From: Eledone cirrhosa
Taxonomy: Eukaryota
DNA: 64,000 nt
Assembly (NCBI GenBank): GCA_964016885.1
Contig: OZ024742.1
Span: 359,104,001 to 359,168,000, forward strand
Direction: 5' to 3'
The notes beneath the pieces were generated by a model. It did no database searches and had not been told where the DNA came from. It saw nothing but the letters and a program-made list of their open reading frames with translations. The translations under genes and the position numbers were made by a program. Positions 630 to 29,520 of this stretch are shown one piece after another. The number at the start of each line of letters is the position of its first letter. The stretch's first letter is position 1.

Positions 630-1318
630 TATTATTATGATTGTTCTTTGAGTCTCAGTCATTGATGTTAGTTAACTGGAAAGTTTGTTGAAATGAATAT
701 CAAGCCACTACCTGCAGCCTCAGATATTCAGGACATATCGGAGGTTTCTTGCTGTTCCCAGCAAGCATGCCTTTTGAAGCGTTCCAAAAAGCGTGAAGGG
801 GCCGATTTTCTTTAACCATCCCTGGAAACTTTTGGAGATAGTCCCCAGTGCGCCTATGACAATCGGGATCACTTTGACTTCATGGCAGTTCCAAATCCAT
901 TTTACCTCCCACTTTAAGTCCTGGTATCGGTTAATTTTCTCCCTCTCCTTCTCTTGCACTCTCGTGTCGAATGGGCAGGCCACATCCACAATCAGACACG
1001 ATCTTTTTTCTTTGTCCACAACCACCAGGTCAGGTCTATTGTGTTCCAGTTTCTTGTCCGTCTGTATCCTAAAATCCCACAGCACCTTCACCTGATTGTT
1101 CTCCAACACCGCCTCTGGCCTATGCTCATACCATTTCTCAGAATGTGGTAAATTGTTCACTTTGCACAGGTGCCAGTGGATCACCCTGCCCATCACATCA
1201 TGTCTCCAGCCCTTATAGTGGGTCTGGGCTAGGTGTTTACACTCGGATACAATGTGAGCCACAGTCTCCAGATCCTGCACAGTGGGCTAGCCTCCTCCTT
1301 GTAAATATGGTGTTTCAT
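630..1318 (-). mobile_element. RLE non-LTR retrotransposon family A (R4/Dong-like), 5'-truncated copy A1
   Basis: ORF 720..1280 carries part of the CCHC finger (ETVAHIVSEC), RHD and the RLE motif NRPDLVVVD...IVDVACP...EKINRY, and ends RYVLNI*. The 3' UTR is shared with A2-A5. Flanked by TTA repeats. Confidence 0.9.
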
Positions 1319-1349
1319 ATTATTATTATTATTATTATTATTATTATTA
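1318..1349. repeat. (TTA)n spacer
   Basis: Pure TAT repeats between A1 and B1. Confidence 0.95.
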
Positions 1350-4300
1350 CAGTTGCATTTATCTTGCTTTATGTTCATACGAGTTATCACCAAGTCACAA
1401 CCAGTGACCTCAAGAGACAACAAGGTCCGCCATGTTCAAGAAAGAACATACATATTCACACATGCATCTTTAGTGTTTAGACTTGTGATGTACTTATATT
1501 GAAAGAATCTTCCTTAGTATATAGGCAGTTCCCATTAGTACTATCTTTTGTATTTCTCCTATACGCGGGTTTCCTGGGATTTGCGATAGGTAATCATTAG
1601 ACCCCTTAGATATCATTCCCAGAGCGCCTACAACCACTGGTATTGTTTTAGTTCTCAATTTCCACATTTTTCCAATTTCTATCTCCAGGTCCTTATACTT
1701 GCTCAATTTTTCAAATGTTTTTATAGATACATTCTTGTCTATTGGAACAGACATATCAATTAGCAGGCATACCCTCCTTTGAAAGTCCTTCAATATTATA
1801 TCAGGTCTATTTGCATCTATTGTTCGGTCTGTTTGGATGCTAAAGTTCCACAAGATTGAGATGTGATCTTTTTCAAGTATGGGAGGTGGTTGATGCTCCC
1901 ACCAATTCTTTTGATGGGGCAGGTCAAAATGCTTACACATTATCCAATGTATGTATTGTGCAGCTCTGTCATGCCTGTTTAGGTATTCGGTTGGAGCTAT
2001 AGGACTGCACATTGAAATTATATGGTCAATGGTCTCTGCAGAATAAAAGCGGTGATAAAGAGTCACCCTGAAAAATTTCACAATTAATGTTAACTTCTCC
2101 AGCTTCCAGTGATTTTGTTTCACTATTCCAAAGGAGTGTCGTTCTCCATGTCCTCATACTGAATGACAAAAACCTCCTGACAACGGGGCATATTTTGAAA
2201 ATCTCTAAACATTTTTCAATCCAACTGTGTGGCAAACTATCGAATGCTTTTTTATAATCTATCCAAGCAATCGATAGATTTTTGTGTCTATTATGACAAT
2301 CTTCCAGTATCATTTTGTTAACCAGAAGCTGATCCTTACAGCCATATGAGCCTCGTTTACACCCTTTCTGCTCAATGGGAAATAGGTCATTTGTTATCAG
2401 GTGGTCATATGTGTATTCAGTTAGGACTGATGTTAAAATTTTATACATTGTGGTCAAGCAGGTTATCGGTCTGTAATTTTTGGGATTGTTTGTCTCATCA
2501 TTCTTCGGTAGCAGGAATGTAATGCCGTTAACTAGCCATGATGGTATCTTTTCTGGCTCCTTAACTATTTCATTGTAAATTTGGGCTAAGCGCTCATGAG
2601 ACTCTGTGAAGGCATTTATCCAAAAGTTTTGTATTTTGTCTTTTCCTGGGGATTTCCATTTGCTGGTTTTTCTTAGAGCCAAGTGCAGCTGTTCAACTGT
2701 TATATTTTCCCATGTTTGTTCTTCAAGGTGAGCTGTTTCTTTCATTTGTCTGTCTATCCATGGGGCATGTATGTTATGAACTTTTTCTTCGGCCCAGATC
2801 TTTTCCCAGAATTCTTGTACTTCCTCCTTGGGTGGTATTGATTTAGCAGTTATTGTTGACTTACCAATTTTTCTGTAGAAGTTTCTTTGGTTGTTTTTGA
2901 ACATATTATTGTCCTTATAGAATCTAGATCGTTTTTCAAAGCGTCTTATACGAGCAGCTTTGGCCGACACTTTTTGCTTGATTGTTTCTATCAGCATGTC
3001 TATGTCACATGTTGATCTTATACTGTACTTTTTTTTCAATTTTCTAAGTTTAGTGTGTTTAACATGTTCACCTACTTTATAGTTTGTTAAAATTTCTATG
3101 TCAGATCGGAGAAGGTTTATTTGGCGATTGATGTTATCTTGCCAAGTAGATTTCTTGTGGGAATTCCTTTGTTTTTTCATCTTCACTCCACATAAGTGAG
3201 TGGTGACTTTAGCCGATGCATAATAGAGATGATTTAAGTCAGTAATGTTTAGTTTGTTTGTGATGATAATGTTTTTGAGAATTATGTTAGTCTTGTGTAT
3301 TATCTTTTGGTTGTGTTTGGAGTTCTGGATCTTAGGGAGGGTGTCTCGTTGCCTCATGTCAGATTCTTTCATTTTCATCCATTCGATCATAATTTCATCC
3401 TTCAAGTTGGCAAGTTCATTCTCATTCATTTCTTTATCATTTACGATCTCATTATTTTCATTTGGAGTTTCATCCTGAGCATGCACTCCCTCCACTTTTT
3501 CGCTCCTTTCTTTAATTTGTTCTGTTGCCAGTGATTCCGCCCCAACCCTGGGATTCGAAGTGTTACAGTTTACCTCGTTTTCACTGACATATGCTTCATT
3601 TTCCCTTCGCTGACTTTGTGCTACTAGCTTGATCTGATCAATTTCTATATCAGTTAGTAACTTTTTTCTTACAATATTTCTTCGTATATTGGCTAGTTTG
3701 TTACTGTCAATATAGCCTCTGTTTTCGGGATGTTTCTTTTTCCAGTTGATATATGTTTGTTCTGTATTCGATGTATTTGATGGGTAGTACATGGCAGTGT
3801 AGAAAGCCTCAAGGACTTCTTTATTATCTTCCCTTGACCATTTTTCTCTCTTTTTTTTTGGATTTCTTGGTGGTGAGCATGGAGGGCCAACAGTAGGAGT
3901 ATTCCGGTTATGGGAGGTCTCCAGCTCCGAAGTGATGGGAAGGTTTGAACCATTAGCTGATTTTTCGACCCCAGTCTGGTTCCTCTCTGAGGGACGCGGC
4001 CCTTTTTTACCCGGGTGACGGCCGATCCGGTATGAGATTTTATCATTAGACATTTACTTTATTTTGTCGCGTTTTATCCTTATCCGCCAAGGGGTAATCA
4101 TTTCGTGTTACCACTTCTAGAACGAGTGTCAACCAAGACTAGAGGGGTCGTTCTCCCCTAGAGACATGGCTATTCCCCGCCGGCCACCATCCCGGTATTT
4201 CTTGGTCACGGGGTTTTCTTTTTGTTGTTTTTTTTTAAATTGTTATTATCATGAGTGGTTCCTTAATGTGAGCATTGCGTGGCTTAAGAATGAAATTATT

Positions 4301-4978
4301 AATAATTGTTTCCACTCCAGGCACAAGGCCAGCAATCACCCAGTGCATTACAATAATATAATATACTTTTTGTTGTAGTTGGCTGTTATTGTTGTTGGCT
4401 ATGTCGGTGGTGGTGCCGGGGCTTTTTATATTGTTGGTGAGGAAGGGGTGAGCCAGCAGTCCCATAATTGTTGATGTAGACGTTTGGCCGGTGGGTGGCA
4501 AGGTCACCAAGTCAATCTATTTATATCTTTTGCTAGCCTCTCTCTTGTCTAGTGCTACCGCCACCTTCCCTTTTCTCTCTCAAGTTAATAGGGGAATAGT
4601 GTCAGTAGCATTGAATGAGTGGTGGCGGCGATGATGGATGTGGTGGGGTGGTGGCAGCGGTGGTGTTGTGGTTACTGATATAGTATCTATGAGTTTGTGT
4701 TCGTATGTTTAATATATATTTTTATTATATTTTGTGTTGACATATTCCCGTAAAATTTGAATTAAACATTTTTTAAAATTTGAGACAATAATAATAGTAA
4801 TTATTATTATGATGCTGGTGAAATTGCCGTTATCTGGCTGTTATATTTAGTGTGATGGGATAGGTAGTGTATCAAGTTTCTGGTGTTGGTGAAATTGAAA
4901 TTGCTGCTGTTCTATATAGTGTAGACAGAGGGTGTTTTGTTCCATTTATAACCATTTTCTTTTTTTGAATACAAAATA
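1350..4978 (-). mobile_element. RLE non-LTR retrotransposon family B (R4/Dong-like), copy B1 with an internal deletion of about 1.1 kb
   Basis: ORF 2026..4053 has RT motifs KSPGKD, NYRPITCL, QKGCK, IDYKKAFDS and FQGDSLSPLLF. It is fused by deletion to the RLE C-terminus (RHD, NRPDIIL, IDMSVP, EKLSKY, ending KILSI* at 1494). Nearly identical to B3. Confidence 0.92.
2026..4053 (-). pseudogene. Family B ORF N-terminal part and RT domain, truncated by deletion
   Basis: 675-aa ORF collinear with 23252..25498 until LLFC, where it jumps to the CCHC/RLE region out of frame. Confidence 0.88.
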
Positions 4979-28987: not shown

Positions 28988-29047
28988 TATTATTATTATT
29001 ATTATTATTATTATTATTATTATTATTATTATTATTATTGTTGTTAT

Positions 29048-29402
29048 TCCTTGAATCTCAGTCATTGATGTTGGTTAACTGGAAAGTCCGTTGGAATGAA
29101 TATCAAGCCACTACCTGCAGCCTCAGATATTCAGGACGTATCGGAGGGTTCTTGCTGTTCCAAGCAAGCATGCCTTTTGAAGCGTTCCAAAAAGCGTGAA
29201 GGGGCCGATTTTCTTTAACCATCCCTGGAAACTTTTGGAGATAGTCCCCAGTGCGCCTATGACAATCGGGATCACTTTGACTTCATGGCAGTTCCAAATC
29301 CTTTTCACCTCCCACTTTAGGTCCTGGTATCGGTTAATTTTCTCCCTCTCCTTCTCTTGCACTCTCGTGTCGAACGGGCAGGCCACATCCACAATCAGAC
29401 AC
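29048..29402 (-). mobile_element. Family A RLE element, short 3' fragment A5
   Basis: ORF 29123..29392 (DVACPFD...RYVLNI*) plus the 3' UTR. Confidence 0.9.
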
Positions 29403-29520
29403 TATTATTATTATTATTATTATTATTATTATTATTATTATTATTATTATTATTATTATTATTATTATTATTATTATTATTATTATTATTATTATTATTA
29501 TTATTATTATTATTATTATT
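29403..29520. repeat. (TTA)n, about 39 units, right boundary of the retroelement array
   Basis: Pure repeat followed by unrelated sequence. Confidence 0.95.

Follow-up and report, generated by a model that had tools for sequence, protein, structure and literature searches.

How do a dozen retrotransposons with two unrelated kinds of endonuclease come to lie end to end on one simple repeat, each kind reading in one direction? The question is raised by a locus of Eledone cirrhosa (contig OZ024742.1, positions 359,104,001 to 359,168,000; these 64,000 nucleotides are referred to here as the window). Window positions 629-29518 are occupied by an array in which 12 LINE (long interspersed nuclear element) copies are situated between 638 and 29404, as determined by self-BLAST and by mapping onto natural copies of full length that this genome contains. 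Four copies of family A and five of family B, which are R4/Dong-like, lie on the minus strand, and three Tx1-like copies, designated T, lie on the plus strand. The spacers are runs of TTA, with a single (TTC)n run as the only other type, and the junction runs contain 184 perfect TTA units. The plus strand reads TTA in all 20 perfect runs of at least three units in window 1-32000; the sole (TAA)n run of at least three units in the whole window is at position 48665. The results presented below show that, genome-wide, A/B and T use one (TAA/TTA)n target, each class in a constant orientation opposite to that of the other. The array itself probably consists of 12 LINE insertions, independent and nested, into that common target, with each insertion likely splitting and lengthening the repeat. 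No host function is implied.

Element junctions across the genome

The 3.0-Gb genome of the species was searched with the ends of the elements, and the best 30 loci were kept for each query. The sample was enlarged with 20-kb stretches surrounding young copies (30 in number), 10-kb control stretches at fixed coordinates (39) and the left neighbour of the window. Junctions were tallied from hits of at least 88% identity after de-duplication, with the window's own junctions included; those of B were drawn from neighbouring loci and from a B-internal search. Excluded from the tally were 22 broken 3′ ends, one of which, an inverted fragment in the window, reads TTA.

Read in the sense of the element, the intact 3′ ends of T adjoin TTA in 144 of 149 cases and TAA in none. 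The same repeat is found at all 67 full-length 5′ ends of T and at 38 of its 61 truncated 5′ ends, again with no instance of TAA. The A/B elements present the opposite picture: 158 of 160 intact 3′ ends adjoin TAA and none TTA, which is the (TAA)n in sense that characterizes R4/Dong elements, while the 175 A/B 5′ ends comprise 134 with TAA, six with GAA, 35 with other sequence and none with TTA. As background, 256 of 59,904 26-nt control windows (0.43%) contain a TTA 8-mer when one given strand is read. The polarity rule is followed by 194 of 200 adjacent pairs of elements. The six exceptions are the window's inverted fragment, one mis-oriented hit on an inverted duplication in T3, and four cases in which the repeat run changes over from TTA to TAA.

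An earlier note, made from the window alone, had proposed a shared target with strict opposite polarity, and the tabulated flanks and orientations of genomic copies agree with that proposal. Among the junctions tallied, neither random orientation nor a majority of copies without a 5′ repeat was seen. The idea that the repeats are mere 3′ tails is ruled out, since full-length and truncated 5′ ends bear them too.

Some A/B 5′ ends have (GAA)n immediately upstream (window 21916-21956, L067, L078, L085, L241+242, L297+298 and L362), and the order is (TAA)n(GAA)n wherever both occur upstream of A/B. Its source could be either slippage on the GAAGA-rich end of the element or a second target.

The target has a third user, which the earlier note overlooked: a short interspersed nuclear element (SINE), with 67 matches in the 39 control stretches (390 kb). 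When the tails are set side by side, the SINE 3′ tail resembles the 3′ ends of T. Target-site duplications accompany 54 of 81 complete SINE copies, with a median length of 13 bp, and mostly start with ATTAT. The SINE is likely mobilised by T, as in a SINE-LINE pair. A fragment of a SINE tail was also observed inside the 5′ untranslated region (UTR) of an A copy, at window 4298-4351.

The elements and the composition of the array

Pfam analysis identified a reverse transcriptase (RT) without Exo_endo_phos in A and B, on the minus strand, and an RT with Exo_endo_phos in T, on the plus strand. Intact natural copies elsewhere in the genome have a single open reading frame (ORF) of 1216 aa (A) or 1141 aa (B), each with an RT, a CCHC motif and, at its end, a motif of the PD-(D/E)xK type. 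This is the R4/Dong layout of a single ORF in which the RT is followed by CCHC and a restriction-like endonuclease (RLE), with no apurinic/apyrimidinic endonuclease (APE) domain. The best PDB matches of B are R2 proteins. An RT tree built from 80 sequences, with neither a proper root nor named Repbase references or other RLE clades, places A and B with homologues from Anolis, Lytechinus, Penaeus, Ostrinia and Oesophagostomum. These are taxa known for the R4/Dong clade, partly according to a figure legend of PMC7998251, and the placement fits R4/Dong. A W...Y helix motif, a possible sign of a SANT/Myb-like domain, is visible by eye at the N-termini of both A and B. The two proteins are only 35-39% identical, yet the first ~320 nt of the elements, within the 5′ UTR, are 85% identical at the nucleotide level (natural copies L341 for A and L345 for B1), which suggests promoter exchange between two Dong-like lineages.

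ORF2 of T encodes an APE, an RT and a C-terminal zinc finger by Pfam, as in the L1 group, and its best PDB match is human L1 ORF2p (E value 2e-48). ORF1 has no Pfam match; a CCHC motif is present in its sequence, and its Atlas neighbours are zf-CCHC and ZCCHC3-RBD clusters (0.90-0.93). Type I ORF1s, RRM-like with CCHC rather than Transposase_22, are tied to Tx1 in the available text of PMC5203782. With this ORF1 and an APE-RT-zinc finger ORF2 nearest L1 ORF2p, 'Tx1-like' is a fair label for T, a label that stops short of proven membership of the Tx1 clade. The closest relatives of T, at ~43% identity, are high-copy (proteins P0002-P0049, from ENA assemblies), and none of 40 pattern matches in JGI metagenome contigs was confirmed as a relative. 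A fourth T subfamily, T4 (L347; 84% identical to T1), occurs outside the window. Certain T2-like copies (L253+254, L281+282, L291+292 and L204) have a different ORF1 joined at reference position 2158, which suggests ORF1 swapping.

The features of the array and its immediate flanks are as follows (window coordinates, strand, description).

141-413, no strand: left half of host repeat, an older dispersed repeat broken by the array; 84-91% matches in L353-L356, L358 and L359, running on into the right half
404-600, minus: tRNA-like SINE of probable tRNA origin by its sequence; 15-bp target-site duplication (398-412 / 600-614); 3′ tail like T 3′ ends
629-637, plus: (TTA)3, left end of array; ~60 bp of host repeat gone immediately to the left
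638-1317, minus: B copy 1 (B1), 5′-truncated R4/Dong-like LINE; 94% to natural full-length B1
1350-4978, minus: A copy 1, beginning at reference 195; ~1.1-kb internal deletion; preceded by (TTA)10 at 1320-1349; RVT_1
5003-6938, plus: T1, 5′-truncated Tx1-like LINE; (TTA)8 before and (TTA)5 after; 97.7% to natural T1; RVT_1 and zf-RVT
6954-7271, minus: B copy 2 (B2), 3′ fragment, then (TTA)21; 99.4% to natural B2
7336-9092, minus: B copy 3 (B1), 5′-truncated; ~265-bp internal deletion; then (TTA)15
9138-15024, plus: T2, full-length Tx1-like LINE; CCHC-type knuckle in ORF1; ORF2 at 11338-14328 encoding APE-RT-zinc finger; then (TTA)12
15061-20951, plus: T3, full-length yet decayed Tx1-like LINE; 92.7% to natural T3; then TTA run at 20952-21005
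21006-21920, minus: A copy 2, 5′-truncated at reference 3976
21921-21993, plus: (TTC)~12, then (TTA)~12 (the TTC run counted from 21916 to 21956 has ~13 units); likely arose at a fold-back apex during insertion of B copy 4
21994-26525, minus: A copy 3, near full length, beginning at reference 71; 285-bp internal deletion; then (TTA)8; 99% to natural A
26550-27715, minus: B copy 4 (B2), 5′-truncated; abuts the inverted fragment with no repeat between
27716-27860, plus: 145-bp inverted copy of the 5′ end of A copy 2, likely a fold-back; then (TTA)18
27916-28986, minus: A copy 4, 5′-truncated, then (TTA)17; 98.9% to natural A
29038-29404, minus: B copy 5 (B2), 3′ fragment; 98% to natural B2
29405-29518, plus: (TTA)38, right end of array
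29519-29920, no strand: right half of host repeat; 11 paralogues match at 82-90% over 290-400 bp

The B copies thus fall into two subfamilies, B1 and B2, and internal deletions are present in A copies 1 and 3 and in B copy 3. The earlier note's total of about 12 elements stands, but its division into five A, four B and three T copies does not: what it counted as a fifth A copy was probably the inverted fragment of 145 bp, and one of the five B copies had been overlooked. Its statement that RLE copies are on the minus strand and Tx1 copies on the plus strand, that fragment excepted, accords with both the mapping and the Pfam results. TTA does read on the plus strand throughout, as was claimed, although the (TTC) run shows that TTA is not the exclusive spacer.

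The 5′ UTR of T3 contains an inverted duplication (15092-15434) that is absent from most other T3 copies; L195 appears similar. Approximately 800 bp to the left of the window (L301:8995-9225) is a separate mini-array of identical polarity, consisting of (TTA)14, a 124-bp B2 3′ fragment and (TTA)17. Elsewhere in the window, and without TTA flanks, are Penelope-like GIY-YIG/RT fragments (42619-43422 and 48999-50335, minus strand) and a zf-RVT LINE fragment (38958-39785, plus strand). An 801-aa open frame at 44016-46421 (plus strand) has no Pfam match.

Growth of the array and choice of strand

The two flanks of the array are halves of one older dispersed host repeat, in the right order. In five of the 11 paralogues of this repeat, homology to window 141-414 meets homology from 29519 across 3, 5, 7, 8 and 8 ATT units. 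In three others that ATT run has received a separate RLE, T2 or SINE insertion, and the remaining three are uninformative. Since both flanks are one repeat and the empty paralogous sites have 3-8 ATT units, the array grew in a single short run, and TTA units at this site have risen from 3-8 to 184. These empty sites, together with the independent truncations of the elements, uphold the earlier proposal that one microsatellite grew by serial insertion.

An array made up wholly of high-copy repeats might be suspected of having arisen by collapse in the assembly, or by tandem or segmental duplication, the more so as no public read was found to cross a junction. Nevertheless, copies of any one family in the window are 1.2-9.3% divergent and have distinct truncation points, and collapse is unlikely because of this divergence and these separate truncations. 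The presence of two B subfamilies, the flanks forming one interrupted repeat in correct order, the lack of any repeated block of neighbours in self-BLAST and the occurrence of arrays obeying the same rule on many scaffolds also argue against such an origin, to which we attach almost no weight. Tandem duplication in particular was rejected because the truncations are distinct.

The inverted fragment bears on how repeats are added. It begins at the exact base at which A copy 2 is truncated and matches that copy at 145 of 145 positions, with five mismatches to A copy 4; no other exact match was found among 55 A segments examined. The simplest reading is that a fold-back formed at the 5′ end of A copy 2 and that its apex was later opened by B copy 4. 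The apex now reads (TTC)(TTA)-A copy 3-(TTA)-B copy 4, and native A has no repeat there. If the fold-back reading is correct, insertion of B copy 4 wrote new repeats that were then used by A copy 3. A template switch during insertion of B copy 4 is an alternative source of the fragment. Two further candidates were rejected: twin priming, because the fragment overlaps the kept part of A copy 2, as fits a fold-back, and inversion by staggered breaks, because the interior retains the polarity of the array.

That insertions appear to add repeats was another point overlooked by the earlier note. It could be supposed instead that ordinary long microsatellites grow by replication slippage, that insertions add a short duplication only and that a few long, pure runs are hit repeatedly. 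The 39 control stretches contain only 20 runs of at least four units, and four of the nine runs of at least 10 units adjoin an A/B/T copy, as this supposition would have it; a rough geometric model (p=0.53), moreover, yields at least 12 copies in about one array per 1000. The contrast between 3-8 units in the empty site and 184 in the array, and the TTC/TTA runs at the formerly repeat-free apex in A copy 2, render slippage improbable as the whole explanation.

In target-primed reverse transcription, the strand that is nicked and used as primer is complementary to the sense of the element. By this rule, the TTA strand would serve as primer for A/B and the TAA strand for T, and we infer that the two classes nick opposite strands. 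The phase of T is fixed: full-length 5′ flanks end in ATTATT in 57 of 67 cases, and 3′ flanks start with ATTAT in 112 of 149. At the imperfect sites L010 and L167, the T duplication starts with ATTA. The fixed phase and the ATTA-starting duplications point to a nick at AAT^AA. No poly(A) was found at any of the 149 T 3′ junctions, despite an AATAAA 6-7 nt inside the end; the T RNA therefore likely reads through into (AUU)n, which would pair with the primer.

The sequence of events might thus be as follows. The A/B RLE would nick the TTA strand and prime on a (UAA)n RNA end. The APE of T would nick the TAA strand at 5′-AAT^AA-3′ and prime on read-through (AUU)n, and a T insertion would leave a duplication of ~8-20 bp. 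The duplication, RNA-templated tails and slippage would together convert one run into two per event, in which case arrays should grow faster as they lengthen. The stacking of elements, and the same rule at hundreds of junctions, probably arise because every insertion furnishes new repeats for its successor.

Pairing between RNA tail and primer raises the possibility that the RNA, rather than the enzyme, selects the strand. Both enzymes could nick AT-rich DNA on either strand, with only a nick that pairs with a (UAA)n or (AUU)n tail being extended, and convergence would then reside in the RNA tails. The absence of poly(A) at the T 3′ junctions with AATAAA just inside and the use of bare ATTAT seeds by T and the SINE as well are in keeping with this, and annealing of a repeat-like RNA to the target has been proposed for SART1 in passages of PMC7265360. 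Against it, the same source describes a target switch when the TRAS1 endonuclease is put into SART1 and calls the endonuclease the primary determinant, and the 5′ phase of full-length T is fixed. The TRAS1/SART1 swap favours the enzyme as the strand chooser. Polarity set by RNA pairing is the less likely account, though the two can operate together.

Several points weigh against the proposed stack of insertions that split and lengthen their own target. The sample leans to the youngest copies, such that old or untargeted ones are under-counted. No repeat is present at 23 of 61 truncated T 5′ ends and 35 of 175 A/B 5′ ends; some of these are subfamily boundaries, and others may be off-target or deleted sites. 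The pre-insertion run in the window may have been longer than those of the paralogues, the case for de novo repeats is a single site, and the gain in repeats could partly reflect ordinary replication slippage. Lastly, the public runs found consist only of short contigs, Hi-C and RAD reads, and comparison of four of them with window 1-1400 yielded stacked reads from other copies of the repeats and none across the junction.

It is apparent that such arrays are common. Across the run from 174 seed junctions lie another A, B or T copy in 93 cases, a SINE tail in 17 and other DNA in 64. Central arrays with at least two copies were found in 22 of the 30 long stretches, and extension of seven open arrays gave, among them, at least 10 copies (26.9 kb, still open), nine (23 kb, open), eight (23 kb, open) and eight (20 kb). 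In the controls, one of 39 stretches contains two mini-arrays, and five of the 20 runs of at least four units adjoin A/B/T. The array in the window would thus be an upper-tail member of a genome-wide population. Because comparable arrays are common, the view of this locus as special is not supported. The array is situated at 359.10-359.13 Mb of a 378.9-Mb scaffold, 19.8 Mb from the end, and arrays of the same rule are interstitial on many scaffolds; the earlier description 'telomere-like' is therefore a loose analogy at most, and a telomeric role was rejected.

A broader picture can be offered tentatively, as possible but somewhat less probable than its converse. Two unrelated LINE enzymes and a SINE may occupy a self-built niche, in which each writes (TTA/TAA)n at its junctions, even at sites formerly free of repeats, and thereby supplies the other class with targets on the opposite strand. 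SINE tails would seed arrays, which would grow to tens of kb throughout the genome by preferential attachment, and co-residence would let distant Dong lineages swap 5′ UTRs.

Comparison with known systems

Precedents exist for each ingredient of this system. According to the available text of the sources, Dong elements target (TAA)n in most insects, molluscs and cnidarians (PMC7998251); Tx1 elements target (TC)n, (TTC)n, (TTCC)n and (TTTC)n (PMC4494074); and an anole element, Tx1-1_ACar, resides in telomeric repeats (PMC10088271). Dong-R4 and L1-Tx1 elements have been recently active in an octopus, for which transposable element hotspots are reported with no mention of targets in the portion of PMC13282606 available, and the word 'microsatellite' is absent from the accessible portion of PMC8967140. 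Convergence of an RLE and an APE on one site is known from Utopia and Keno (PMC4640811), and opposite orientation within one repeat from TRAS and SART (PMC7265360, PMC10088271), as far as the text of these sources extends. Within the literature searched, no TTA-targeting Tx1 and no mixed Dong/Tx1 arrays were found, although Kojima and Fujiwara 2004, Repbase/Dfam entries or supplements may already record such cases. Nor did that literature yield a Tx1-like family with a TTA target that occupies self-renewing arrays together with Dong.

Three consequences can be drawn. (TTA)n is added to the list of targets of Tx1-like elements. The two classes, each represented in this genome by young, apparently intact copies, form a natural pair in which the endonuclease and the RNA tail can be tested as strand chooser in target-primed reverse transcription. 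The data also suggest that a microsatellite target can be renewed rather than exhausted; such renewal would account for local transposon hotspots and for a large part of the long TTA repeats in genomes of this kind.

The A and B elements resemble Dong in their single ORF with RT, CCHC and RLE motif and in having TAA on both sides in sense. They differ in that two distant lineages, with a largely common 5′ UTR, are stacked here with APE elements. T resembles Kibi, Koshi, the crocodilian Tx1 elements and Tx1-1_ACar in its APE-RT ORF2, its CCHC-type ORF1 and its fixed orientation inside a simple repeat. Its target, in contrast, is (TTA)n in sense, which is unlisted in the available text of PMC4494074 and PMC10088271; it has no poly(A) tail, and its target is common with that of an RLE family. 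TRAS and SART of the silkworm, as described in the passages cited, likewise comprise two families in one short repeat, (TTAGG)n, in opposite orientations and in arrays. Both of those families, however, belong to the R1 clade, carry an APE and are restricted to telomeric repeats, whereas here the endonucleases are unrelated and the arrays lie dispersed at interstitial sites. Utopia (RLE) and Keno (Tx1, APE) in U2 snRNA genes have the same orientation and use up their target by insertion, with only occasional same-family tandems reported in the text available; the present arrays, by comparison, have opposite orientation, a renewable target and mixed families. Taken together, the data describe a real feature and a genome-wide rule, which is a variant of known target-specific LINE biology and not a new kind of system.

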